Shown piece after piece: positions 7,335 to 19,945 of a stretch of 64,000 bases of DNA; positions within the stretch are counted from its first letter, which is position 1, and each line of letters begins with the position of its first letter. Origin of the DNA: Steroidobacteraceae bacterium (GTDB lineage: Bacteria > Pseudomonadota > Gammaproteobacteria > Steroidobacterales > Steroidobacteraceae); the NCBI GenBank assembly GCA_036267535.1, contig DATAVX010000105.1, positions 237-64,236 on the forward strand, read 5' to 3'. Both the position numbers and the translations under genes were made by a program. The notes beneath the pieces were generated by a model, which did no database searches, had not been told where the DNA came from, and was given only the letters and a program-made list of their open reading frames with translations.

Positions 7335-9620
7335 CTACTGCCTAATTGGAATGTCGACATAGCTGTCGCCGTACCATCGAACCTTAATGGGTATCTTGCC
7401 GTCCGCCACGGATTCTTCACTCACATCGCCGCCGGTGCCGTAGTTGATCTCTCGATCGGGGCGCTTGGCGACGCTCAGCACGATGGCGAGACGGCTACCC
7501 GGCTGCAGCTGCCGGCTCGTCATGCGCTCGCTCTTGAAGGAGAGCTTTTGCCGTTCTCCCGCCTTCAGTAGATGCCGATGAACCCGGTCCGGCGCATAGC
7601 TCGCGCGCATCTCGTAGGTCGGACTGAAGAGTCGAATGTAGTCGCCGCTCGGAAGTTGCTCGTACAACGTGATGTTCAGGTCCAGATCCATTTTATTGAC
7701 CGCGAAATCAAGGCGGCCGGAAAACAAGCCATTAATGATGATCGTCTTGGTGAGCGGCTCGCTTACGAAGATCGCGCCGTGGCGGGGGGCGAGGCTTTTG
7801 CTGATGTAATCCGTGGGCGGCGTCCAAGCCGCGTCCTTGCGCTCAACAAGGTTCACGACCTGTTGAACGGCGCCATCGCCCGGTTTCTTGTGCAGATTCA
7901 GCCGATGATTTCCAGCAATGACCGCGGCATCCAGGTAGTAGCGCTGTGAAGCATTCGCTGTTCCCTCCAGTGATCCGGCGTGGTGCCACTCGTTTGCGCC
8001 CATCACCTCGTAATTGACCGGGGCGGACAGCAGCGCCGGCAGCGCCGTGCCTTTGAGAACATGATCAAGCCACTCGAAGCGCAGCTCTCGCAAGTCGACG
8101 AGCGCCGCGGGATCCACTTGATACCCATGCAAATTGGCTGAGGGCCCAGCGCGCATCGCGTCGGCGTCATATGGACCGATGAGCAGAGTGTGATCCGCAT
8201 GCGGGTTGTACTGATGATGCTGCGTGAAATAATAAAGATCGCCCGGAGCGGCGGCGGCGTAGTAACCGCTCATCGTGAGCACCGGAATGTTGATGTGCGA
8301 AAACTGTCGACGGTATGGCACGAACTTCTGCCAGTAGCCGTCGTAGCTCGGATGATTGAGCCAACGAATGAAAATCGGGTTGTGTTTTCCGTACAGCCGG
8401 CCCATGTCTCGATAACGCCTGCCGCTGCGGTACCACTTCTCGTCGAGGGCGTGCCACTTTGCGGCGTCTTCCTTCTCATTCACATCCGCCGCGCCATCCT
8501 CGTTCATCCGCAAAGACCAGCCATACGCCGCGTTCTGAAAAATATTGCCGGCCATCGGGAAATTGATTCCGGGTGCGCTTGCTGCAAAAGTGGCTATGGC
8601 CTTGAGCGCCGGCGGCAAGCGCTTGGCGGCGGCCCATGGCGCAAAGCCGCTGTAGCCATCGCCGTACATTGCCACCCGGCCGTCGCTCCAGGATTGCTTC
8701 GCGATCCAATCAATCGCCAGGCGCGCATTGGCTCCGACCAGATCCAAAGGATCGATGCCGCCCGGAGGCTTCGGTTTCCCGACCGTGAAGGCGACCACGC
8801 CCGCATAGCCGCGCGCGGCGCATTCCTTGGCATAGTTCTGTGATTCATCAGCGGCGAATTCAAGAAGCGCCGGCATGGACTTCGCCCCGCCGTTTGGACG
8901 AACCACAACGATTGAGATATCGGTTCCACCAGAACCCTTGATATGGACGCCGCTGTCGCTGGTATAGCGCCGATGGTCATCCTCCGCATTCAAGAGCACT
9001 ACCAGCGAACCGAAAGTCCGATAAGCATCAAAGGACACATACTTCCAAATCAGGTCAATTGCTTCGGACTCATCGACACTGTCCTTGCCGCGATACTGAT
9101 CCAAGTCTCTTTGCAAGGCTTCGCGATATGTCGCGGGGGACGCGCCGAGCCAGTGCGCGACGGCGAAGGCGTCGCGGTCATCCAGGCGCCGTACGGTTTC
9201 CCGGTACGTGGCGGTAAATGACTCGGCGAAAGTGATACGGCGTTCAGTTTCCACGGCCTTGGCGTGGGCGTACATGTCGAATATCACGGCGCGCCCTATC
9301 GGATGCCCGAAATCCGATTTTCGCCGCCGCTCGCGCAGCGATGACCTGGAAATGTCGGCGGCGGCGAAGTCGCCGACGGCCATTTGCAGCGCGGACAGAT
9401 TTGCCAGATATCGCTCTGGATCCGAGTCCTGATAGACGGGAATGAGCCGCGACGCCAAGTCGCTCATCGTCGCGGCGGTGGCGGCATCGAGCGGCGAAGC
9501 CGGCGCGCGGAAATCGAAATCCGGCGCGCTCCATCCTGGCGAGGCGAAGAAAAGCAGGGTCAGCACCGCAATTCGCATTCCGTGCAGGACGCGGGATCGA
9601 CGCAGTGGCAGCCGCTTCAT
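7335..9620 (-). CDS. CocE/NonD (peptidase S15 / X-Pro dipeptidyl-peptidase) fold protein with a signal peptide, an N-terminal helical extension, and an apparently absent catalytic triad
   Basis: Fold blocks are present: WIAKQSWSDGRVAMYGDGYSGFAPWAAA, LNHPSYDGYWQKF and LLIGPYD, plus a C-terminal jelly-roll region. The signal peptide is MRIAVLTLLFFASPGWSA. The start ATG overlaps the upstream ABC gene stop (ATGA). See the findings for the triad substitutions. Confidence 0.85.
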   Translation of the reverse strand: MKRLPLRRSRVLHGMRIAVLTLLFFASPGWSAPDFDFRAPASPLDAATAATMSDLASRLIPVYQDSDPERYLANLSALQMAVGDFAAADISRSSLRERRRKSDFGHPIGRAVIFDMYAHAKAVETERRITFAESFTATYRETVRRLDDRDAFAVAHWLGASPATYREALQRDLDQYRGKDSVDESEAIDLIWKYVSFDAYRTFGSLVVLLNAEDDHRRYTSDSGVHIKGSGGTDISIVVVRPNGGAKSMPALLEFAADESQNYAKECAARGYAGVVAFTVGKPKPPGGIDPLDLVGANARLAIDWIAKQSWSDGRVAMYGDGYSGFAPWAAAKRLPPALKAIATFAASAPGINFPMAGNIFQNAAYGWSLRMNEDGAADVNEKEDAAKWHALDEKWYRSGRRYRDMGRLYGKHNPIFIRWLNHPSYDGYWQKFVPYRRQFSHINIPVLTMSGYYAAAAPGDLYYFTQHHQYNPHADHTLLIGPYDADAMRAGPSANLHGYQVDPAALVDLRELRFEWLDHVLKGTALPALLSAPVNYEVMGANEWHHAGSLEGTANASQRYYLDAAVIAGNHRLNLHKKPGDGAVQQVVNLVERKDAAWTPPTDYISKSLAPRHGAIFVSEPLTKTIIINGLFSGRLDFAVNKMDLDLNITLYEQLPSGDYIRLFSPTYEMRASYAPDRVHRHLLKAGERQKLSFKSERMTSRQLQPGSRLAIVLSVAKRPDREINYGTGGDVSEESVADGKIPIKVRWYGDSYVDIPIRQ

Positions 9621-11443
9621 TGCGGATTTCCGCCGTCAATGCGCGATGCAGCCCGCTCGCCGTCGCTGCCTGCGGACTCGGTCTTCGATGAATCCTTGGG
9701 CAACTTGATAAGGTGCAGGGTTGCGGAAAACAGATCGTGCGCCTCGCCGGCACTGCCCACGTGGATAATGCCCGTGTGCTTGAGCTCCTTGGTAAACACA
9801 TCAATGACCAGCGCGAGCACATCGTCATCGAGCAATCCGAAGGTTCCGTCGATGAGCACCCAGGGCGGCATCTGTATCAGCATGCGCGCAAATACCAGGC
9901 ATAGCTGTTCGTCCTGGCTCAGCTCGCGGTCCCAGCGGCGAGTCTCATCGACCAGCGGCGCGAGGCGTTCGAGACCCAAGCGGAACAACGCGCGCGTAAA
10001 GGCGTCGGCGGTGAAATTCTCGGCCTTCAAAGGATACGCAAGCACCTCTCGCAGGCTGCCTCGCGGCAAGTACGGGGTGCCGCGCGGCAAATAGAATATC
10101 TGCTCGCCCTGGGGGCGCGTGACGCGGCCCGAACCCCAGGGCCACAAGCCTGCCAGGGCGCGGAAGAACTGGGTCTTTCCCGTTCCCGGCGCCCCCAGAA
10201 TGAGCACGCGCGAGCCGGCCTCGACGACCACTTTCAATTCCCGCAGCTTGTCGGCATGCGCAGAGGAAGTGCTCTCGAGTTTTTCCATCATGATTCTGCC
10301 CGGATCGCCTTCCGCGTACACGATGCGGCTTTCAAAACCGCGCGGCTCGTCGGTGGAAACGACGGCGTGGCGAAAAGTGGCCACGCGCAGCAATGTGGCG
10401 CGCCAATCGGCAATCACGCTGAAATTGTCGACGAACCAGCGCAGCGAGGATTGCGCCTGGGTGAACGCGGCAGCGGCCATCATTAATCCGCCGAAGGAAA
10501 CTTTGCCGGTGAAATACAGCGGGGCGGCCACCAGGATCGGTGCCACGATGGTCACCCAGCCGAATCCGGCAGTAACCCATTCAAGATTTGTGTGGCCCCA
10601 AACGATGCGCCGTGTTGCGCGCAAAACATCCACCAGACGGCGTTCGATGCGGCGCCTCTCGTCTGCCTCGCCTTGCGCAAGCGATATATCGTCGACATGC
10701 TCGTTGACGCGGACCAGCGAGAAGCGCAGGTCAGCCTCTCGCGCGTAGCGCTCGGCGTTGCGATTGATGAGCCCCCGCCCAACCCAGTAGCTCACCAGCG
10801 AGCCCGCACTTGCGTACAGAATGGCCGCCCACAGCATGAATCCCGGAATAGAGTAATCTCGGTCGCCGAAATGAAGGGTAAAGGTGCTGGACAGCCCCCA
10901 CAGGATGCCGGCAAACGTGCCGAACAGGATAGAGGCCTGAAAAAGGCCGATTCCCAGTCCGCCCGAGAGCTCGCACAATTTTCTTGCGTCCTCGTGGATG
11001 CGCTGGTCCGGATTGACCCCCATCGTGCCGCTGCTGGCGAGCCAGAATGCCCGCCGCGGCAACAGCCAGTCGCGCAGCAGACTTCGAACCAGCCCCTCTC
11101 GCAGTCTCACCTGCAGCATCTCCGCGAGCCAGCGCTGCGTCACGTTGAGAGCAAGAATGCAGCCGGCGATCACGAAGAAAACGCCGAGTTGGAACAGGAA
11201 GTCCCTCAGGTCGCGCCGTGAGAGCGCATCGTAGAATGGCTTGTTCCAGCTATTGAGCCGGATCTGTCCGTACGCCGTGGCCAAGATGACAAGCACGATC
11301 GCCGTCAGGAGAACCGCGATTTTCTTGCCCACGCCGGAGCTGGAAATCGCGCGGATCATCAATGTCAGCTGCCGCAGGAAGCCTAAGTGCACTACTTTGG
11401 CATCCGGTGCAGTGCGCGGTTTTGTCGTCGCGGGATCTGTCAC
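9617..11443 (-). CDS. SbmA/BacA-type (YddA-like) ABC half-transporter, fused TMD and NBD, with a degenerate NBD
   Basis: The TMD block NSWNKPFYDALSRRDLRDF...RWLAEMLQVRLREGL is typical of the SbmA_BacA/ABCD-like family. The NBD has Walker A GAPGTGKT and LAGLWPWGSG. The other ATPase motifs deviate (see findings). Confidence 0.85.
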   Translation of the reverse strand: MTDPATTKPRTAPDAKVVHLGFLRQLTLMIRAISSSGVGKKIAVLLTAIVLVILATAYGQIRLNSWNKPFYDALSRRDLRDFLFQLGVFFVIAGCILALNVTQRWLAEMLQVRLREGLVRSLLRDWLLPRRAFWLASSGTMGVNPDQRIHEDARKLCELSGGLGIGLFQASILFGTFAGILWGLSSTFTLHFGDRDYSIPGFMLWAAILYASAGSLVSYWVGRGLINRNAERYAREADLRFSLVRVNEHVDDISLAQGEADERRRIERRLVDVLRATRRIVWGHTNLEWVTAGFGWVTIVAPILVAAPLYFTGKVSFGGLMMAAAAFTQAQSSLRWFVDNFSVIADWRATLLRVATFRHAVVSTDEPRGFESRIVYAEGDPGRIMMEKLESTSSAHADKLRELKVVVEAGSRVLILGAPGTGKTQFFRALAGLWPWGSGRVTRPQGEQIFYLPRGTPYLPRGSLREVLAYPLKAENFTADAFTRALFRLGLERLAPLVDETRRWDRELSQDEQLCLVFARMLIQMPPWVLIDGTFGLLDDDVLALVIDVFTKELKHTGIIHVGSAGEAHDLFSATLHLIKLPKDSSKTESAGSDGERAASRIDGGNPQ

Positions 11444-11538: not shown

Positions 11539-13065
11539 TCAGTTTCGCAGGATTGCGCGGAGCATCGACATCCCGCGGCGGATCTCGGTCAAATCCACCG
11601 TGCCATAGCCGAGCACCAGTCCGGCCCTGGTTGGCGGTCCCAGGAAGTATCTGCTCAAGGTATGCATTTTGACGTGCTGCTGTGCCAACGCGGCGCTCAC
11701 TGCCTCGAGATCAACACGAGTGAGAGGTTCGGCCGCAACATGCATGCCGTAGAGGCAGGGGACGGGCACCAGCCATTCGCTCAAGGTGTCCCGCAATGAG
11801 CTCAACAGCAATTGTCGGCGCGCACGGTAGATCTCGCGCATTTTGGCGACATGGCGCGTCAGATGACCCTCGCTGATGAATGCGGCGACTGCGCTTTGAA
11901 TCGGCGTCGCGCAATGCCAATCGAAGCAATTTTTAGCGGCGGTCAAAGTATTGATAGCCCAGCTCGGGGCGACGATGAAACCGAGGCGCAACGCCGGCAG
12001 CATGCATTTTGAGAATGTGCCGACATAGAAGACCACGTCCATCGCACGCACCGCACGCAGCGCCGCGAGCGGGCTGCCCTCGTACCGAAACTCCCCGTCG
12101 TAGTCATCCTCGATGATCACCGCGCCGTGTTCGCGAGCAAATTCGAGCAGCGCCTCGCGCCGGCGCATCGACATGGTGATGCCCAGAGGGAATTGGTGCG
12201 ACGGAGTCACGCAGATGATGCGTACGCCGGGCGGCAGCCGTTCGACCATCAGACCTTCTGCATCGACGCCGATGGGAACCAGCCGGGCGCCCGCAGCTGC
12301 AAATGCCACGCGCATCGGCGGATAGCCCGGATCCTCCAGCGCAACGATGGTTTCGTCGGGTGTGACCAGCGCTCGGGCAAGCAGATCGAATGCCTGCTGC
12401 GCTCCGGAGGTCACGAGTATTTCCTCGGCCTCGCAAGCCACGGCACGCGTGATGGCAATGTGCCTGACGATCGCCTTGCGAAGATAGAAGTTGCCCTGAT
12501 TGCCCTGCGGGCTTTTGTAGCTCGCCGGTTTCCTTTCCAGGCCTCGCAGTTGCTTGGCGCTAACGCGCCGAAATACGTCCAGCGGAAAAAGCCTGGAGTC
12601 GACCATCGCAGGACGAAAATCGATCAGCGCGCCTTTGCGCGTGAGTGGCTCGGCTTCGGGCGGGTCGCGCCAGAAACTCATTGCCGCCGTAACGTCGGGA
12701 CGCAGCCAAAATCCGTTTATCCGATGCCGCAATGGCTGTTCCGCCGAAGGCCGCGTTGTTGCAGCCCGCGGCGGAATTATTTCCGCAACGTAGGTACCCG
12801 CACCGTGCCGGGTGACCGCGTGACCCTCCGTCACCAACCTCTCATAGACTTCTGCGGCGGTATTGCGCGAGACGCCGAAGAACTCAATCGATCTTCGCGT
12901 GGCGGGCAATTTTATGCCTGCCGCCAGGCGTCCATCGACGATGGCGGCTTTTAACTCACCATGCAGCGTCCGCGAGGATTCTCGTGAGCCGGCCGGCTCG
13001 AGATCGAGCTTAATCTCGAAAAAAGGCTCGAATGCCTGTCTACGCCGTGAGCGAGAGTGGCCCAA
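11539..13065 (-). CDS. MocR/PdxR-type regulator (GntR winged helix fused to a fold-type-I aminotransferase-like domain)
   Basis: The N-terminal wHTH reads LPATRRSIEFFGVSRNTAAEVYERLVTEGHAVTRHGAGTYV. The C-terminal PLP-fold carries the Lys motif GTFSKCMLPALRLGF. Confidence 0.9.
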   Translation of the reverse strand: MGHSRSRRRQAFEPFFEIKLDLEPAGSRESSRTLHGELKAAIVDGRLAAGIKLPATRRSIEFFGVSRNTAAEVYERLVTEGHAVTRHGAGTYVAEIIPPRAATTRPSAEQPLRHRINGFWLRPDVTAAMSFWRDPPEAEPLTRKGALIDFRPAMVDSRLFPLDVFRRVSAKQLRGLERKPASYKSPQGNQGNFYLRKAIVRHIAITRAVACEAEEILVTSGAQQAFDLLARALVTPDETIVALEDPGYPPMRVAFAAAGARLVPIGVDAEGLMVERLPPGVRIICVTPSHQFPLGITMSMRRREALLEFAREHGAVIIEDDYDGEFRYEGSPLAALRAVRAMDVVFYVGTFSKCMLPALRLGFIVAPSWAINTLTAAKNCFDWHCATPIQSAVAAFISEGHLTRHVAKMREIYRARRQLLLSSLRDTLSEWLVPVPCLYGMHVAAEPLTRVDLEAVSAALAQQHVKMHTLSRYFLGPPTRAGLVLGYGTVDLTEIRRGMSMLRAILRN

Positions 13066-13179: not shown

Positions 13180-13686
13180 ATGGAGACGGCGATGCAGTTC
13201 TCAAAATCGATCGCGATCGGCCTTCTGACCGCCGGCGCCGGGATGTGGATTGCACCCTCGAGCGCGTCGGGCGAGGCGGCTGACCCCTTCTCTGGGGGCT
13301 CCAAATCGATCGAACTGGATGGCATCGTCACAGTGCGAAAAGTCTGGGGTGGACGTGCCCAATTGGAAGAGATCGAGACCGACGGTCCGAACGGACATTG
13401 GGAAGGCTTGACATTGTTTCTCTACGATCCAGCCGCACATCAGTGGCGCCAGTCCTTTGTCAACAGCGAACAAGGCGTTCTCGCACCGCCGCTGGTCGGA
13501 TCCTTCAAGAATGGCCGCGGCGCATTGTTTGCTTCCGATACGTTCAAAGATCGGTCGATCCTGGTGCGCGGGGTGTGGTCGGACATCAAATCAGACTCGC
13601 ATCACTACGAGGAATCGTACTCGGGCGACGGCGGCAAGACCTGGATGCCGGCCTTTATTGCCGATCTCAGCCGAGAAAAGCCATGA
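13180..13686 (+). CDS. Secreted hypothetical protein (beta-rich, DUF1579-like pattern)
   Basis: The signal peptide is MQFSKSIAIGLLTAGAGMWIAPSSASG. The C-terminal ...EESYSGDGGKTWMPAF is typical of small secreted beta-barrel proteins. The gene is divergent from the MocR gene. The start could instead be ATG 13192. Confidence 0.6.
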   Translation: METAMQFSKSIAIGLLTAGAGMWIAPSSASGEAADPFSGGSKSIELDGIVTVRKVWGGRAQLEEIETDGPNGHWEGLTLFLYDPAAHQWRQSFVNSEQGVLAPPLVGSFKNGRGALFASDTFKDRSILVRGVWSDIKSDSHHYEESYSGDGGKTWMPAFIADLSREKP

Positions 13687-13714: not shown

Positions 13715-13863
13715 TTCTGGCGCGCTGCTCAGGGCGGTCTGCATTTTGTCCTACCGGGGCGTGTAGGACATTCCCGACGTCCGGTTAAGTGCTTCGGCCT
13801 TGCGAATTGCGCGCCCAGAGGAGGATAAGTCAGCTTCAACATCTACAACAACAAGGATTGCCG

Positions 13864-14502
13864 ATGTCGCGAGTACTGATTGCCGACGATCATGCCGTTG
13901 TGAGGGCGGGTTACAGGCAATTTCTCGAGGCCGAAGCCGGTATCACGGCAATCGGCGAGACCGCCAGCGGCAATGAGACGTTGGACCAGTTGCGTCAACA
14001 GCCGTGGGACCTGCTGCTGATGGACATCCACATGCCCGACCGCAGCGGCCTGGATATTCTGAAGCATGTCACCAGCGGTTTCCCCAAGGTGCGCGTGCTT
14101 ATCATGAGCGGACTACCCGAGGCCCAGTATGCTCGTAACGTGCTTCGCGCCGGCGCCAGCGGCTACCTTTCCAAGGGCGGCTCGCCGGAGGAACTATTGA
14201 AAGCGGTGCGCACCGTGCTGGTCGGACGCCGCTACGTCAGCGCTGCCCTCGCCGAAGCGATGGCCGCCGATCTCGAATCCGACCACGATCAAAATCAGCC
14301 TTTACACGAAAGACTATCCGTCCGAGAGTTCCAAATCTTCGGCAAATTGGCAGCCGGGTCCGGCGTCGGGGAAATAGCCGATGAATTGAGCCTGAGCGTC
14401 AAAACGGTCAGTACGTATCGATCGCGAATTCTGGAGAAGATGAATTTCAGCAGCAACGCGGACATGACGGCGTACGCACTGCGCAACGGCCTCATTTTAT
14501 AG
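13864..14502 (+). CDS. NarL/FixJ (LuxR-type) response regulator, with no adjacent histidine kinase
   Basis: The receiver domain reads VLIADDHAVVRAGY...DLLLMDIHMPDRSG...KVRVLIMSG. The LuxR HTH reads LSVREFQIFGKLAAGSGVGEIADELSLSVKTVSTYRSRILEKM. The start is taken at the internal ATG 13864. Confidence 0.9.
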   Translation: MSRVLIADDHAVVRAGYRQFLEAEAGITAIGETASGNETLDQLRQQPWDLLLMDIHMPDRSGLDILKHVTSGFPKVRVLIMSGLPEAQYARNVLRAGASGYLSKGGSPEELLKAVRTVLVGRRYVSAALAEAMAADLESDHDQNQPLHERLSVREFQIFGKLAAGSGVGEIADELSLSVKTVSTYRSRILEKMNFSSNADMTAYALRNGLIL

Positions 14503-14530: not shown

Positions 14531-15217
14531 CTACCGCCTCGGAACGATTGGCGCAACATTGGCATTTGATACCCAGCCGGAGCGGCCGGCCCGCGTCAGA
14601 ATGAGCGTGTATCCCTCGTGCTGGGCGGCGAGCTTGACGGTTTCGCCTTCCGCCAGAGTAAATAAGGCATCCCCCATCGGCACCGGAGAGACCCGGACCG
14701 GGGTTGCCGCCACAATCACAACTCCTGAATGCAACCTTGGCCACAGCGCAATGCCATTGCAGACGGTCAGACTCACCATGCACAATCCCAATAGGACACC
14801 GGCATGGCGCAAGCGCCGATACCGCGCCGTAGATCGTCCCAACAGCATGCATGCGCCCGCCATCGTCAAACCCACAATGCCGAGCCACGATAGAACGGAG
14901 GGACTGGCGATTCCGGCAATGCGATCGAAGGTGCTGCGCGTTGCGGGAGGCAAATGCGCGGAAGCACGCACAAACTGCAAGTTGGCCGCCACATCCGGAT
15001 CATCCGGCACGAGCAATCCCGCGCGCTCGTAATTGAGCACCGCCATGCCTGGTTTGCCGGCGCGCGCATAGGAATTCGCGAGATTGTAGAGGTCCGCGGC
15101 GGAATAGCCGGCCGGCGCCTGCGGCGGAGCCGCACGCGCCTGAAGGGGGCCCAGCAGCAAGCCAGCGCCGGGCAGCAAGCAAGCAAACAGACACAAGGCG
15201 CGTGCCCATGCGCTCAT
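14531..15217 (-). CDS. BatE-like TPR plus SH3 domain membrane protein (last gene of the Bat-type operon)
   Basis: After a signal peptide come a TPR unit (AADLYNLANSYARAGKPGMAVLNYERA), TM helices, and a C-terminal SH3-like region (VRVSPVPMGDALFTLAEGETVKL...GWVSNANV). The start ATG overlaps the batD stop (ATGA). Confidence 0.7.
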   Translation of the reverse strand: MSAWARALCLFACLLPGAGLLLGPLQARAAPPQAPAGYSAADLYNLANSYARAGKPGMAVLNYERAGLLVPDDPDVAANLQFVRASAHLPPATRSTFDRIAGIASPSVLSWLGIVGLTMAGACMLLGRSTARYRRLRHAGVLLGLCMVSLTVCNGIALWPRLHSGVVIVAATPVRVSPVPMGDALFTLAEGETVKLAAQHEGYTLILTRAGRSGWVSNANVAPIVPRR

Positions 15218-17022
15218 GCAGACTTCTCGCTCGCCAATTGGCCGCGAACTACGTTGAGCCATCGAACAAAATCGGTGGTGTTCGGCGCGCGCCCGGAATA
15301 TTTCGATTCATCCGCGAGCGCAAACAGCCGGCGAAGGTCGTTGTCTGCTCCAATTCTGGAATCAAGCTCGGAAGTGGTGACGTCTTCGGGCATCAGCTGC
15401 CACCGTGCTGCAAGCAAACGCTGCAGGGCGCTGCGCGCCGAATCGAAGAATAGCGTCTCGTTGCCATGATGAGCGGCTGCTTCCAATTGCGCCATCACCC
15501 GTTTGGTCGAATCGCTCTTGCCATCCCAGCGAGGCCTCAGCCCGAGGCACGCTGCCGCAAATGCCAGCATTAGAAATGAAGGAAGTGCGAGAAACTTCGG
15601 CTGCAAGTACAGCGGCGTCAGAGTGGGCCTCGGTGCGTCGACGGCGGCATGATCGGCCCGCAAACCGGCTGCCGATTTCGGCGTGCCGCTTGCCGCGGCA
15701 TTCGCGGCCACCTGAGGCGCAGTCAGCACACTGTCGGCTAAAGCCGGCGATATGGTCACGCTGAGAGGCGCTCCGCGCGCCGTCTCATAACGCCGCGAAT
15801 TCGGATCGAAGTAGCTAAACGACAGGGCGGGCAGCGTTTGCACGCCAGGTTTCGAAGCGATGACCGGTTGCTCGAAGGTCTTCATTCCGCTAAATCCAAT
15901 CGGATCGCTGGTATTGAAGGACGACTTCGGCGGATAGGTCTTCCACCGATCGACGTGATCGAGCATTCCGCTATCGACGCGATCGAAGCTTCCAGACCCC
16001 GAAATGCGCATGCGCAGCGTCACTGGGTCGCCGACATCGGCCTTGGCGGGGAAAATATCGCTGACAATGTTGAATGTGCCGATGGCACCATGAAAATCGG
16101 CTGGCCGCCCTTGGACGGGCAAATCCAAGACCTTCAGCTCTTGCGGCGGACTTGTAACTTCAATGTCCTTCGGGACGGTCGTGCCGAACAGATTCTGCCA
16201 GAACGGATCCCCGAACCGATCCTCCAAGAGCGCATCCCGCTTGGACCGAGTTCTAATTTTGACGGTCAGCGGAGCAGCGGCGGACAGCGAGAATGTACCC
16301 GGCTTGATCACTGAAAGGAGGCTGCGCCAAGTAAACAAGACGAATGGCTCGCCGTTGATCAATTTTTCGCTGCGCTCCGGTTGATGCGAGAGATTGTTGA
16401 GCGTGAAATTATCTCCCGTAAGCTTGGGCAACCCATTCAACGAGGACACGAATCCGGAGCGCATTCCGACCTCGATTTCGGCCGGAACGCTCTCACCGAC
16501 ATAAATTTCGCGCTTCGGAATACTGAGGCGGACATAGGCGGAGCCATCGTCGGTCAAGTGCACGCCCTTGGGAAGCGAGCCTCCGGACAAAATAGGCGGC
16601 GCAAGCGGCGCCGCGGGCGCGCCGGCGCGGGGCACGTAGGCGCCACTCGGTGCTGCATTCACCTGCAACACGAGTGGTTGAGACTTCGGCGTTACCGCCG
16701 GAATCGTGAAAATCCCGGCGATCTGCGGCGTCACGCGCATGACGGTCGACGCTGAGGGCAGAGTCGTTCCGTTTATGATTTGAATCTCATGCGTGCGTGC
16801 GACAATCTCGAATTTCAGCCCGGCGACCACCGGCATGGTGATCGGGTTCGTGCCGTCTCCTAGATTTGTAATCGTGAACTGCGCGGATTCGCCCAAGCTA
16901 ATCTGGGCGGGCTGAATCGTCGCGTATACCAACGGATCATCGGCAAGCGCCGTCGCTGCGCCAAGAAGGCCCATCAGGACCGTGGCGAACAACCAGCGGC
17001 TAATGAGTTGTTTCCTGCTCAT
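15214..17022 (-). CDS. batD: BatD-family (oxygen-tolerance) protein
   Basis: A signal peptide is followed by repeated beta-sandwich-like modules (...ATIQPAQISLGESAQFTITN...), a late TM helix, and a C-terminal cytoplasmic tail. The position matches Bat operons. ATG 17022 overlaps the batB stop (TAATG). Confidence 0.8.
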   Translation of the reverse strand: MSRKQLISRWLFATVLMGLLGAATALADDPLVYATIQPAQISLGESAQFTITNLGDGTNPITMPVVAGLKFEIVARTHEIQIINGTTLPSASTVMRVTPQIAGIFTIPAVTPKSQPLVLQVNAAPSGAYVPRAGAPAAPLAPPILSGGSLPKGVHLTDDGSAYVRLSIPKREIYVGESVPAEIEVGMRSGFVSSLNGLPKLTGDNFTLNNLSHQPERSEKLINGEPFVLFTWRSLLSVIKPGTFSLSAAAPLTVKIRTRSKRDALLEDRFGDPFWQNLFGTTVPKDIEVTSPPQELKVLDLPVQGRPADFHGAIGTFNIVSDIFPAKADVGDPVTLRMRISGSGSFDRVDSGMLDHVDRWKTYPPKSSFNTSDPIGFSGMKTFEQPVIASKPGVQTLPALSFSYFDPNSRRYETARGAPLSVTISPALADSVLTAPQVAANAAASGTPKSAAGLRADHAAVDAPRPTLTPLYLQPKFLALPSFLMLAFAAACLGLRPRWDGKSDSTKRVMAQLEAAAHHGNETLFFDSARSALQRLLAARWQLMPEDVTTSELDSRIGADNDLRRLFALADESKYSGRAPNTTDFVRWLNVVRGQLASEKSA

Positions 17023-18950
17023 TACCAATTCTTAAAAGGCTTGTCCGGCGGTTGCACGGCACCGCGCTGCGCCCACGGTATCGCCATATTTTTCTCGTCT
17101 CCTTTGACCGAATCCAATAGCTCCCGGGCTTCCTCGCGAGTCATTTCGCCCGGCGCTCGCTGGTTATCCGCCGTCCGCGGATCTCCGTCCGCGGATGGCG
17201 GCTGACCGGCGCTGCGTGGCGGCTGATCCGCATTTGGCTGTCCGGAATTTGGCTGCGGCGGCGCCTGCCCTGCCTGGCCCTGTTTAGGATCTTGCTTTTG
17301 GTCCTGCTTCGGGTCGTTGTTTTTTGCGTCGGGCCGCGAAGGAGGCGGTCCCTGAGCCTGTCCGGAACCTGGATGCGGCGGCTGCTCCTTGTTTTGTGCC
17401 GAGTTGTTCTGCTGATTCTGCTGATTCTGCTGATTCTGCTGATTCTGCTGGTTCTGCTGGTTCTGGTCCTTATTGTTCTTGTTTTGGTTCTGCTGATTGT
17501 TTTGCTTCTGCTGCTGCTTCAGCGCGTCGATTTTGCGCTTCACCAAATCCCGATTGAACTTGCTGTCCGCGTCGTCGGCGCGCAGCTGCAGCGCCGTCTC
17601 ATACGCCTTCACGGCATCGTTCCACTTCTGCAACGTCTCTTGCGGCGAACTCTGTTCGGTTTTCTGCCCCGATCGATAGAGGGTATTTCCAAGATTGTAG
17701 TAAGCATCCTCTTGGACGGCCAATTGCCGGGGATCGCCGGAGGGCACGTGGCCTATCGACTGCGCAAAGGAGCGCGCAGCCTGGGGAAATTGCGCCGCGC
17801 GGTAAGCGGCAGTTCCGGCGTTGTATTCGAGTATCGGTTGCTTCGCTTCAAGGATGGAATCGGCGTGCACAGGCTGTGAAGACACGGTCATAGCCATTGT
17901 TACCGTGGCCGACGCGGCACCGGCGGCGATGGCCCTGATAGGCGTCCTCAGGCGCCGCCGGCTTCCGATTAACAGGCTCGAGAGCAACATGGCGAGAGAT
18001 GCGGCCAATGGCCATTGAAACCGCTCGACATAAATTTTTTGCTGACGGGACGCCAGACCATGTTTTGCGATGGCTCCCAACACGGTCTGGAAAATCAGCT
18101 CAAGTCCCTCGCCCTGGTTTCCAAGCGGCACGTAGAATCCTCCGGTCGCACCGGCGATAGCCTTCAACGCGGTTTCATCCAGCCGCGATTTTACGAATGC
18201 TCCGCTATCGTCCTTCACAAATCCGCCGCCTTGCCCCGCCGCGATGGGAATCAAATCGCCCGCGGCCGTTCCCACGCCCACCGTAAAGATCTTGAGTCCG
18301 TCCGTCTTTGCCGCCGCCTGGGCCGTGTCAAAAGCGCTGCCCTCGAGGTCTTCGCCATCCGTCACGAGAATCAATATTTTATCGCTGTTTGGGCGGCGGC
18401 GCAGCGCGGCTTGAGCCGCTTGGATGGCAGTTGAGATATCGGTGCCCCCGCGCGGGACTATGCTCGTATCGAGGGCGCTCAAGGACTCGTGAAAGGCCCC
18501 ATAATCGAGCGTCACGGGGCAAGCCAAAAACGCGGCACCGGCGAATGCCACGATGCCCACCGCATCGCCGTCCAGTTTCTTCGCGAAGTCATCGACGGCA
18601 AGCTTGGCGCGCGTCAAACGATTGGGCCTGACATCAGGCGTCAACATGCTGCGAGAGGTGTCGATGGCGAATATGACTTCAATGCCGCGACGGCTGACTT
18701 GTTCCCAATGAAATCCCAGCTGCGGTTGAGCAAGCGCCGCGAATAGACAGACCAGGGCACCCAGAAACAGGCCGCGCTGCGCTCGGCGCCGGCCATGCGA
18801 AATTGAACGCGTCAGCTGATGCCGCAAATGTGCGGACACGAAGCGCGCGAGCGCCGTGTGTTGACGCGCATCGTACAGCCGCCAGAGCCAGATGAGCGCC
18901 GCGCCGGCCGCCAATCCCGCCGGCAGCCATGCTGGATTGCCGAATCTCAC
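17022..18950 (-). CDS. batB: BatB/BatC-like fusion: VWA domain, TPR repeats, and a long Q/N- and P-rich tail
   Basis: The GTG start at 18950 has GGAGG upstream and overlaps the batA stop (GTGA). The N-terminus has TM helices. The VWA MIDAS motif is IFAIDTSRSM. A TPR unit reads YYNLGNTLYRSGQ. The low-complexity tail reads QQNQNKNNKDQNQQNQQNQQNQQ... The 821-aa ORF in the track is an upstream extension that overlaps batA. Confidence 0.8.
   Translation of the reverse strand: MRFGNPAWLPAGLAAGAALIWLWRLYDARQHTALARFVSAHLRHQLTRSISHGRRRAQRGLFLGALVCLFAALAQPQLGFHWEQVSRRGIEVIFAIDTSRSMLTPDVRPNRLTRAKLAVDDFAKKLDGDAVGIVAFAGAAFLACPVTLDYGAFHESLSALDTSIVPRGGTDISTAIQAAQAALRRRPNSDKILILVTDGEDLEGSAFDTAQAAAKTDGLKIFTVGVGTAAGDLIPIAAGQGGGFVKDDSGAFVKSRLDETALKAIAGATGGFYVPLGNQGEGLELIFQTVLGAIAKHGLASRQQKIYVERFQWPLAASLAMLLSSLLIGSRRRLRTPIRAIAAGAASATVTMAMTVSSQPVHADSILEAKQPILEYNAGTAAYRAAQFPQAARSFAQSIGHVPSGDPRQLAVQEDAYYNLGNTLYRSGQKTEQSSPQETLQKWNDAVKAYETALQLRADDADSKFNRDLVKRKIDALKQQQKQNNQQNQNKNNKDQNQQNQQNQQNQQNQQNQQNNSAQNKEQPPHPGSGQAQGPPPSRPDAKNNDPKQDQKQDPKQGQAGQAPPQPNSGQPNADQPPRSAGQPPSADGDPRTADNQRAPGEMTREEARELLDSVKGDEKNMAIPWAQRGAVQPPDKPFKNW
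17407..17469. repeat. Seven-unit 9-bp tandem repeat (TTCTGCTGA/G) inside batB, encoding (QNQ)n
   Basis: Read directly: TTCTGCTGA x4, TTCTGCTGG x2, then a degenerate TTCTGGTCC. On the coding strand this gives QNQQNQQNQQNQQNQ. Confidence 0.9.
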
Positions 18951-19945
18951 GGCAGCCTCCGTAGGCGGGTCTGCTGCAAGAGCAGGCTGAGCCCAAGAAT
19001 TCCGAGCGCAGGAATGAGCGCCCAAGGATACAGCTCGTCGGTATGTTCGAATTTCTGTACTGTCCGGGCGTTTTTCTCCAAGCGATTGATCTGTTCGTAG
19101 ATCTTTTGCAACGAATCGGTATCCGTTGCGCGATAAAACTTGCCGCCCGTTGCGTCTGCCACTGCTTGCAGCGTCTTTTCGTCTACGTCCACCTTGGCCA
19201 TCACCAAGCGCGCGTTTCCCAACGCATCCCTGACTGGAATCGGCGCGTCGCCGCGCACCCCTACGCCGATGGTATAGATCTTGACACCCATGGCCCGGGC
19301 GGCTTCCGCGGCGGCGATCGGCGAAATCTTGCCTGTGTTGTTCACCCCGTCGGTGAGCAATATGATCACTTTCGACTTCGCCTGCGTCAGACGCAGCCGA
19401 TTGACGCCGGCCGCAATGGCCGAGCCAATCGCAGTGCCATCGTCCACGCCGCCCACGGCGACCCGGTCCAGGTTTTGCTGCAGCCAATCGTGGTCGAGCG
19501 TGAGCGGGCTGACCAGATACGGAGCGCCTGCGAAGGCGATGATGCCGATGCGATCGTCGGGCCGTTCATCGATGAATCTGGAGACCACGGACTTGACCAC
19601 CTCGATGCGGTTCACGCGCTGGTGCTCCATCTGAAAGTCCAATGCCTGCATGGACCCGGAGACATCCAGACCCAGCACGATATCGATGCCATTGGCAGTC
19701 ACTTCGGTGCGGCCATGGGCGCGCTGCGGTCTCGCCAGACCCACGATCATCAGGGCGCCTGCCAGAACCGGCAACATCCACATCAACCAGCCAATCTTGC
19801 TGCGTCCGCGCCGAGCGACCTCGCGCGCCAGGCTGACATCGGAGAATTCAATGGCGGCAACGGGGCCCCTCCGCCCACGCCATAACATGACGAGGGGCAG
19901 CAGAGCCAAAAGCCAGAACCACTCAGGTTGCAGGAACCGGGTCAT
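18947..19945 (-). CDS. batA: BatA-like VWA-domain membrane protein
   Basis: N-terminal TM helices (WFWLLALLPLVMLW) precede the VWA MIDAS motif VLGLDVSGSM. A C-terminal TM helix follows. Confidence 0.85.
   Translation of the reverse strand: MTRFLQPEWFWLLALLPLVMLWRGRRGPVAAIEFSDVSLAREVARRGRSKIGWLMWMLPVLAGALMIVGLARPQRAHGRTEVTANGIDIVLGLDVSGSMQALDFQMEHQRVNRIEVVKSVVSRFIDERPDDRIGIIAFAGAPYLVSPLTLDHDWLQQNLDRVAVGGVDDGTAIGSAIAAGVNRLRLTQAKSKVIILLTDGVNNTGKISPIAAAEAARAMGVKIYTIGVGVRGDAPIPVRDALGNARLVMAKVDVDEKTLQAVADATGGKFYRATDTDSLQKIYEQINRLEKNARTVQKFEHTDELYPWALIPALGILGLSLLLQQTRLRRLP

Follow-up and report, generated by a model that had tools for sequence, protein, structure and literature searches.

A conserved ABC half-transporter of the ExsE class with a predicted hydrolysis-dead nucleotide-binding domain and a pseudo-hydrolase partner

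We analysed a 64,000-nucleotide stretch of DNA (the window) from the Steroidobacteraceae bacterium assembly GCA_036267535.1 (contig DATAVX010000105.1) and found in it a gene for an ATP-binding cassette (ABC) half-transporter whose nucleotide-binding domain (NBD) is conserved and predicted to be well folded, with the residues needed for ATP hydrolysis replaced at four positions. Directly downstream and overlapping it lies a gene for an exported protein with the domains of a CocE/NonD hydrolase and without the catalytic triad. We assign the transporter to the ExsE class, and the explanation that we find best is that it acts, most likely as a homodimer, as a hydrolysis-independent importer in which the hydrolysis-dead NBD would be kept as a structural or gating module; we give this about an even chance of being right. 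ATP hydrolysis is what defines an ABC transporter. To our knowledge, ATP sites that do not catalyse occur always beside one working site, or in proteins that are no longer transporters (CFTR, SUR). The family to which our transporter belongs is known, but its systematic degeneracy at both sites and its pseudo-hydrolase partner appear to be undescribed so far.

The open reading frame (ORF) of the transporter starts with a GTG codon that has the sequence AGGAGG 12 nt upstream. Pfam assigned two families to the transmembrane domain (TMD), ABC_membrane_2 (PF06472, E 4.6e-36, residues 36–302) and SbmA_BacA (PF05992, E 2.7e-19, residues 49–360), and gave a weak match of 33.8 bits (E 5.9e-8, cut-off 25 bits) to ABC_tran (PF00005). 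None of the NCBIfam models scored at or above its own cut-off, the SbmA model reaching 37.8 bits against a cut-off of 492. Among solved structures, the best relative by sequence was Rv1819c of M. tuberculosis (6tqe, E 2.5e-53), followed by the ABCD proteins, and a Foldseek search with the AlphaFold (AF2) model of the transporter returned the same order, with 6tqe at the top and then ABCD1/3/4. The NBD was modelled with a predicted local distance difference test (pLDDT) score of 82–91, and its strands and helices follow the order expected for an ABC-type NBD. The initial annotation had called the protein an SbmA/BacA-type half-transporter with TMD blocks of the SbmA_BacA type, a description that both Pfam families and the Foldseek result bear out. 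By its TMD type and its C-terminal NBD fold we place it in the type IV ABC half-transporter group of ABCD, YddA and Rv1819c proteins, from whose catalytically competent ATP site it departs at R454, D511, G533 and S564.

We read these four residues by aligning the query, residue by residue, with Rv1819c, E. coli YddA and 63 family representatives that are fully canonical, and the window coordinates of each motif (Table 1) were verified by translation. Walker A is canonical. The Q-loop region reads YLPR454GTPY against FLSQLPY or LPQRPY in the relatives, with a one-residue insertion (G455) that is a feature of the subgroup of close homologs to which the query protein belongs. The signature, LSQD511EQ, aligns with LSxGEQ; the end of Walker B, LID532-G533, aligns with LDE; and the H-loop strand, IIHVGS564, aligns with VSIGH. 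In the AF2 model the P-loop precedes helix 423–431, the signature sits at the N-terminus of helix 510–524, Walker B forms strand 528–532 and the H-loop strand spans residues 558–563. The alignment thus confirmed what the initial annotation had read from the letters, namely a canonical Walker A (GAPGTGKT), an Arg for the Q-loop Gln, a degenerate signature with Asp for the second Gly, a Gly for the catalytic Glu and a Ser for the H-loop His, and the four losses support its expectation of two degenerate ATP sites in a homodimer.

The alternative that the motifs are merely shifted was rejected on the strength of these alignments and of the secondary-structure register of the model. His561 was likewise rejected as a displaced H-loop His: it lies inside the strand, three residues upstream, and relatives have H, Y, N, S or K at this position. 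We note that the PDB entries 6tqe and 6tqf share one sequence with a Gly at the position of the Walker B Glu (LDGS), which a naive alignment could misread as normal for the family.

The degenerate motifs are nearly invariant among 120 homologs with 75–90% overall identity (GAPGTGKTQ in 109 of 121 sequences; LSQDEQLCL, LIDGT and IIH[IV]GG), and the same pattern recurs almost without change across 85 genomic loci that encode proteins 47–86% identical to the query. The 85 loci come from Steroidobacteraceae, Nevskiaceae, Variovorax, Methylibium, Brucella/Ochrobactrum, Phyllobacterium and one Acidoferrum metagenome-assembled genome. Within the query subgroup, Walker A (including K423), the Walker B Asp532, the D-loop Asp539 and the signature Ser509 are retained and invariant. 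Mean pairwise identity is as high in the NBD (0.858) as in the TMD (0.859) and falls to 0.46 in the C-terminal tail, which serves as a near-neutral control for the ratio of non-synonymous to synonymous substitution rates (dN/dS). Against 12 orthologs, NG86 estimates of dN/dS, which are approximate since dS is saturated, were 0.05–0.17 for the NBD, 0.04–0.13 for the TMD and 0.1–1.2 for the tail. With motifs that are nearly invariant, conservation equal to that of the TMD and a low dN/dS next to a drifting tail, the NBD is under purifying selection in its degenerate form, and its motif pattern is far beyond chance. The ortholog survey for which the initial annotation had called therefore found the degenerate motifs conserved, and the equal conservation of the two domains and the dN/dS values support the idea of an NBD kept by selection as a non-catalytic module. 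That the NBD might instead be a decaying relic, or the gene a pseudogene in the making, could be argued from the wider degenerate clade, where the NBD changes faster than the TMD (identities of 0.37 and 0.46, the reverse of the 0.46 and 0.40 in canonical relatives). With a reading frame intact in more than 200 homologs, nearly invariant motifs, a confident and well-folded NBD model and an NBD dN/dS like that of the TMD, we regard decay as effectively refuted.

Degeneracy of the NBD extends well beyond the query. A search of representatives clustered at 50% identity returned 9006 relatives, and we compiled motif statistics on the 108 nearest ones with a readable NBD: 63 were fully canonical and 31 lacked three or more of the five key residues. 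A neighbour-joining tree built from the TMD only placed the query in one clade in which degeneracy is the rule, and at least two further degenerate groups arise separately on the tree, so that loss of catalysis seems to have been repeated within the same protein family. Representatives of the further groups, off the query clade, are P0196, P0205, P0211, P0228 and P0260, and P0191, P0212, P0238 and P0254.

The order of the losses can be followed across the 85 loci. Essentially all of them have an Arg in the Q-loop and an Asp in the signature and lack the His of the H-loop (the wider clade favours Asp or Glu at position 511), so that R454, D511 and the absence of this His are hallmarks of the whole ExsE clade. 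Walker B ends in Asp-Glu in the more distant subfamily and in Variovorax and Methylibium, in Asp-Asp at 61–66% identity and in Asp-Gly in the query subgroup, a distribution which shows that the catalytic Glu was lost later than the other residues, stepwise from E to D to G. Walker A follows another course, canonical in the query subgroup and damaged in several sister lineages (GTNKT, GTEKT, GTATT, GIDRT). Sister lineages that have lost the P-loop Gly or Lys still keep the NBD, and nucleotide binding therefore cannot be what explains its retention universally. Of the earlier suggestion that the NBD acts in nucleotide sensing, the part that stands is that it may do so in the query subgroup, where Walker A is invariant; as a general account of the clade it does not hold.

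The same data bear on whether the protein could still be an ATP-driven pump, one whose catalytic arrangement is non-canonical and whose basal ATPase activity is low. The invariance of Walker A, Asp532, Asp539 and Ser509 in the subgroup and the Asp-Glu pair kept in sister lineages would fit such a pump, and cases of ABC proteins that tolerate single motif changes have been described in the literature. Here, however, four catalytic elements are gone at once, and either of two of the changes can suffice elsewhere: the E576G substitution in Walker B, at the residue equivalent to Gly533 of the query, inactivates Rv1819c, and in CFTR, ATP-dependent function is abolished when the signature Gly is replaced by an acidic residue. 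Related lineages keep the NBD after losing the P-loop Lys or Gly, and no conserved substitute acidic residue or His is evident at the relevant structural positions. We consider residual pumping very unlikely.

Non-catalytic nucleotide sites that are kept for regulatory or structural roles are known from TM287/288, BmrCD, CydDC, TAP and CFTR/SUR. All of these keep one consensus site, whereas in the presumed homodimer of the query both sites are degenerate and conserved. A heterodimer in which a canonical partner, encoded elsewhere in the genome, supplies one working ATP site would bring the query in line with these proteins, and some genomes do hold two family members (L033/L063, L023/L079), in two loci as adjacent pairs (L004, L052). 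The query, however, would bring a defective Walker B, Q-loop and H-loop to one composite site and a defective signature to the other, and therefore no partner could build a consensus site with it; the protein has neither an adjacent complementary half nor a canonical signature beside its degenerate Walker B and H-loop, as a heterodimeric exporter would. Exporter partners are normally adjacent, and scans of the 64-kb window with the query, its TMD, its NBD, the YddA NBD and a regular expression for Walker A plus signature found no second family member and no other ABC ATPase. Adjacent paralogs occur in just two or three of the 85 loci, and those are degenerate too. Taken together, we see only a slight chance that the query is one half of such a pair. 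In L004 (6012–7910) and L052 (515–2185), the second paralog lies directly upstream of the main copy and has a still more eroded NBD (CTADSDKS / LPAREQQ / LFEDIA / VGS) without an ABC_tran match in Pfam. The two copies there may pair up as a heterodimer in which both halves are dead.

The assignment to the ExsE class, which has no formal definition, rests on sequence identity, higher to ExsE proteins (49% and 51%, see below) than to YddA (23–25%) or Rv1819c (29%), and on one neighbour-joining clade. The class includes a gene on pSymB of S. meliloti (L086 8977–10797), recorded as an 'ABC transporter ATP-binding protein/permease' and flanked by exsH/exsG/exsF and by queC/queD, which we take to be exsE by its locus order rather than from its annotation. 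Its product is 49% identical to the query and carries the motifs IPR-APYFPRG, LGDDEQ and IKIGRT, with the Walker B IDE retained. The ExsE class and the query thus share their architecture, a Q-loop Arg, a signature of the form L[SG]xDEQ and the absence of an H-loop His. They differ in that ExsE keeps Asp-Glu in Walker B and has no S15-like neighbour, whereas the query has Asp-Gly and the S15-like partner described below. Our literature searches on this family returned no account of a degenerate NBD in the ExsE class and nothing relevant on the function of ExsE.

There is, however, indirect evidence that the clade still translocates something. Smith et al. (2025; PMC12003926) placed ExsE of P. 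zundukense (BLM14_RS04300) in Clade A, Cluster 2, and found that, in a bacA mutant of S. meliloti, its gene complemented the gentamicin phenotype to an intermediate degree and had little complementing effect for NCR247. The TMD of this protein is 51% identical to that of the query and 95% identical to that of a Phyllobacterium locus (L080), whose NBD, read as a stand-in for the P. zundukense one, is degenerate (SEPGIDRT / MPRLPY / LSDDEQ / VHIGR).

Other relatives are more distant. The query is 29% identical to Rv1819c, the mycobacterial BacA (6tqe, 6tqf), with which it shares the type IV half-transporter fold and which was its best match by both sequence and fold; Rv1819c has been reported to import hydrophilic compounds with no help from a classical binding protein. 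Its motifs are canonical and it depends on hydrolysis, whereas the query is the natural equivalent of its E576G mutant with three further losses. More generally, ATP hydrolysis is essential for transport in BclA and mycobacterial BacA proteins, whose canonical NBD the query lacks. E. coli YddA and BclA types resemble the query in their Pfam domains and overall architecture, and E. coli yddA, too, has links to periplasm-facing uptake genes, with yddB adjacent and pqqL associated with it in the literature. YddA, at 23–25% identity, differs in its canonical motifs (GYSGAGKT / SQ / LSSGEKQR / LDE / THQ).

A recent proposal derives SbmA/BacA from a YddA-like ABC transporter by loss of the NBD and gain of a ladder of glutamates (E193, E203, E269, E276, E287 and E378), each of which is needed in SbmA. 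The initial annotation had suggested that our protein could be an intermediate between ATP-driven BclA/BacA and proton-driven SbmA, and a related rival explanation is that it is a secondary transporter powered by proton motive force, as SbmA/BacA is, with the NBD as a regulatory appendage. Besides the proposed YddA-like origin of SbmA types, three acidic residues of the query (E151, E236 and D346) at the positions of SbmA E193, E276 and E378 speak for this. The same three are present, however, in canonical ATP-driven relatives and in YddA, and the query has no counterparts of E203, E269 and E287 (the residues there are G161, N229 and N247), leaving the ladder incomplete. The TMD is also farther from SbmA than that of canonical relatives: it scores 13.4 bits against 55.5 for YddA, and the median for the degenerate clade is 29 against 58 for the other representatives (p = 3e-7). 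The low score of the NCBIfam SbmA model points the same way, and a published phylogeny makes the ExsE class an outgroup to BclA and SbmA. What the query has in common with SbmA/BacA (SLiPT) proteins is a distant homology of the TMD, seen in the SbmA_BacA match, and a function that would not depend on hydrolysis; SbmA differs in having no NBD, which in the query occupies residues 399–572, in its TM0 helices and in its complete ladder. Because the query has no extra ladder residues and a lower TMD score against SbmA, we interpret it as a parallel and independent loss of catalysis, off the SbmA lineage. The intermediate is thus unsupported, and we think a proton-driven transporter quite unlikely.

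The second component of the module is the protein encoded downstream. The TGA of the transporter overlaps the ATG of the S15-like gene by 4 bp (ATGA; CAATGAAG), and the two genes are predicted to be translationally coupled. The S15-like protein begins with a Sec-type signal peptide (residues 1–32) and a helical N-terminal region (residues 33–230), followed by Peptidase_S15 (PF02129, E 3.4e-26) and PepX_C (PF08530, E 7.6e-7) domains, and it matches the cocaine esterase CocE at an E of about 1e-19. It therefore has the domains of the CocE/NonD family and lacks the Ser-Asp-His triad: CocE S117, D259 and H287 are replaced by G322 (8655–8657), A455 (8256–8258) and A486 (8163–8165). The triad is absent from 120 homologs annotated as 'CocE/NonD family hydrolase', and among the S15-like orthologs linked to a transporter the His is never present, with the Ser and Asp occurring occasionally. 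An unlinked canonical S15 protein in L034 served as a positive control in the same alignment and keeps S, D and H. The triad call relies on this alignment with its internal control; the AF2 model of the S15-like protein, built from a shallow alignment, has a mean pLDDT of 39. Members of the orthogroup differ from CocE in the triad positions (Gly/Ala, Ala and Ala/Asp/Glu), in the extra helical N-terminal region of about 200 residues and in being exported. We regard the protein as a putative pseudo-enzyme, a conserved dead hydrolase.

The S15-like gene is syntenic with the transporter in 43 of the 85 loci, including nearly all of those at about 56% identity or more. The pair is also found fused into single proteins of 1368–1369 residues, in which a transmembrane segment separates the NBD from the S15 domain, in three independent assemblies (ENA, JGI and Logan). 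These fusion proteins are encoded in L003 (8001–12110; P0121) and also include P0391 and P0392.

The wider neighbourhood suggests the direction of transport. In 21 loci at 56–66% identity, the cluster contains a close homolog of a glycoside hydrolase (GH) family 144 endo-beta-1,2-glucanase (E 5e-136 to 5gzh), accompanied in most by GH15 and GH3, and 12 further loci have GH144, mostly with GH15 or GH3, without the S15-like gene. The query's own subgroup has the S15-like neighbour only. A recurrent cluster comprises a divergent GH3 gene, the ExsE-like ABC gene, GH144, GH15 and often S15 (L033 9935–16891; L020, L025–L030, L032, L036–L041, L043–L046, L053 and others). The gene at the exsE position of pSymB also adjoins a glycanase gene, exsH. 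The family paper on beta-1,2-glucanases makes no mention of ABC transporters. In the examples that we inspected, the GH144, GH15 and GH3 proteins have no signal peptide and are thus expected in the cytoplasm, while the S15-like protein has one and is expected to be exported. This layout, from a periplasmic S15-like protein through an inner-membrane transporter to cytoplasmic hydrolases, suggests import.

An alternative to import is that the protein is no longer a transporter at all, and that the ABC scaffold serves as a transmembrane sensor, regulator or anchor, as in SUR and CFTR, either relaying a signal from a ligand of the S15-like protein through the TMD to the NBD or merely tethering that protein. 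Such a role would fit the loss of catalysis in both partners and their occasional fusion into one polypeptide, and there are regulators nearby: genes of the MocR and LuxR types in the window, and the two-component genes exsF/exsG beside the gene at the exsE position on pSymB. The proximity of these regulators is not conserved across the clade, however; the MocR-type gene is conserved in L005, L006 and L008 only, the closest relatives, and is possibly a local regulator rather than a core part. The TMD, moreover, is under as much constraint as that of active relatives and retains the motifs of the translocation pathway, a member of the clade partly restored gentamicin uptake, and neighbouring cytoplasmic GH144, GH15 and GH3 enzymes fit the delivery of a substrate better than signalling. 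On balance, a sensor or anchor is unlikely.

For a hydrolysis-independent importer we propose the following scheme. The transporter and the S15-like protein would together take up a hydrophilic solute from the periplasm, where the dead hydrolase would serve as the binding or docking partner. The transporter would alternate its access without ATP hydrolysis, as a facilitator, the direction being set by the substrate gradient and by consumption in the cytoplasm. In the query subgroup the NBD probably still binds nucleotide through the Walker A residues K423 and T424 and through Asp532. In CFTR, the substitutions G551D and G551E, but not G551K and G551S, abolish stimulation by ATP through repulsion of the gamma-phosphate, which blocks ATP-induced NBD dimerisation. 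Asp511, at the equivalent position, should act likewise, repelling the gamma-phosphate and preventing the locked ATP sandwich that hydrolysis normally reopens; if so, no hydrolysis would be needed to reset the cycle. There are precedents for parts of this scheme in mycobacterial BacA, for which a gradient-directed and bidirectional 'ATP-driven diffusion' has been described, and in a D-loop mutant of TAP that behaves as a hydrolysis-independent, nucleotide-gated facilitator.

Several points weigh against this scheme. The closest characterised homolog strictly needs hydrolysis and shows no transport with AMP-PNP or ADP, and a hydrolysis-free cycle would therefore require a changed reset mechanism. 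ATP binding, the lack of hydrolysis, transport and the interaction with the S15-like protein are all deduced from sequence. The gentamicin result was obtained with a 51%-identical protein, was no more than 'intermediate' and concerns an NBD known only through L080. Walker B Asp-Glu is kept in sister lineages, so that a slow ATPase may persist in parts of the clade, and the tree on which the clade is defined has no bootstrap support values. At the query locus itself there are no glycoside hydrolase genes, and a substrate is not indicated there.

A more specific version of the scheme is that Arg454 and Asp511 form a reversible latch across the dimer, a speculative element prompted by their co-occurrence (counts of 6/3/4/95, Fisher p = 8e-6, a value not corrected for phylogeny). 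The module would then be an ABC 'facilitator' in which an Arg454-Asp511' latch replaces the power stroke of the ATP sandwich and nucleotide is at most a gate, with the dead CocE/NonD protein as receptor and, in the relatives, beta-1,2-gluco-oligosaccharides as the substrate handed to GH144, GH15 and GH3. We offer this version tentatively and think it doubtful as a whole.

The coordinates of the module and of the genes upstream of it are given in Table 1. The ORF between the MocR-type and LuxR-type genes has a similarly placed, unannotated counterpart in L005.

Table 1. Coordinates in the window of the transporter, its domains and motifs, and the neighbouring genes.
Feature	Position	Strand	Remarks
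ExsE-class type IV ABC half-transporter gene (TMD and degenerate NBD)	9617..11443	-	608 aa; from ORF, Pfam, alignment and fold search
Transmembrane domain, aa 36-365	10349..11338	-	Pfam and six long transmembrane helices in AF2 model; motifs NPDQRIHED, EADLRF
Nucleotide-binding domain, aa 399-572	9728..10249	-	predicted folded; conserved, without catalytic residues
Walker A GAPGTGKT, aa 417-424	10172..10195	-	canonical; K423 invariant in query subgroup
Q-loop region YLPRGTPY, aa 451-458	10070..10093	-	Arg454 replaces Gln
Degenerate signature LSQDEQ, aa 508-513	9905..9922	-	Asp511 replaces second Gly; position of CFTR G551D
Walker B and D-loop WVLIDGTFGLLD, aa 528-539	9827..9862	-	Asp532 kept; Gly533 replaces catalytic Glu; D-loop Asp539 kept
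H-loop strand IIHVGS, aa 559-564	9752..9769	-	Ser564 replaces switch His
Downstream CocE/NonD-fold (S15-like) gene	7335..9620	-	761 aa, predicted periplasmic; Peptidase_S15 and PepX_C
MocR-type regulator (GntR helix-turn-helix and aminotransferase-like domain)	11539..13065	-	95 bp upstream of transporter, same strand
168-aa ORF	13180-13686	+	apparent signal peptide, no Pfam match; between MocR-type and LuxR-type genes
LuxR-type response regulator	13789-14502		
BatA/BatD/VWA/TPR-type cluster	14531-19945	-	syntenic with L005 1-4945; appears unrelated to transporter

For the family, the repeated loss of catalysis without loss of the domain implies that the two losses are separable, which bears on the proposed path from YddA to SbmA. 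The dead hydrolase, conserved beside the transporter and in some lineages fused to it, suggests an unrecognised kind of periplasmic partner for an importer with an exporter fold, and the module would give a mechanistic frame for the long-unexplained exsE gene of S. meliloti. The ExsE clade is widespread in soil and root-associated bacteria, with cultured hosts in Variovorax, Sinorhizobium, Phyllobacterium and Brucella/Ochrobactrum, and it would be a natural experiment on the roles that an ABC domain can play beyond burning ATP.

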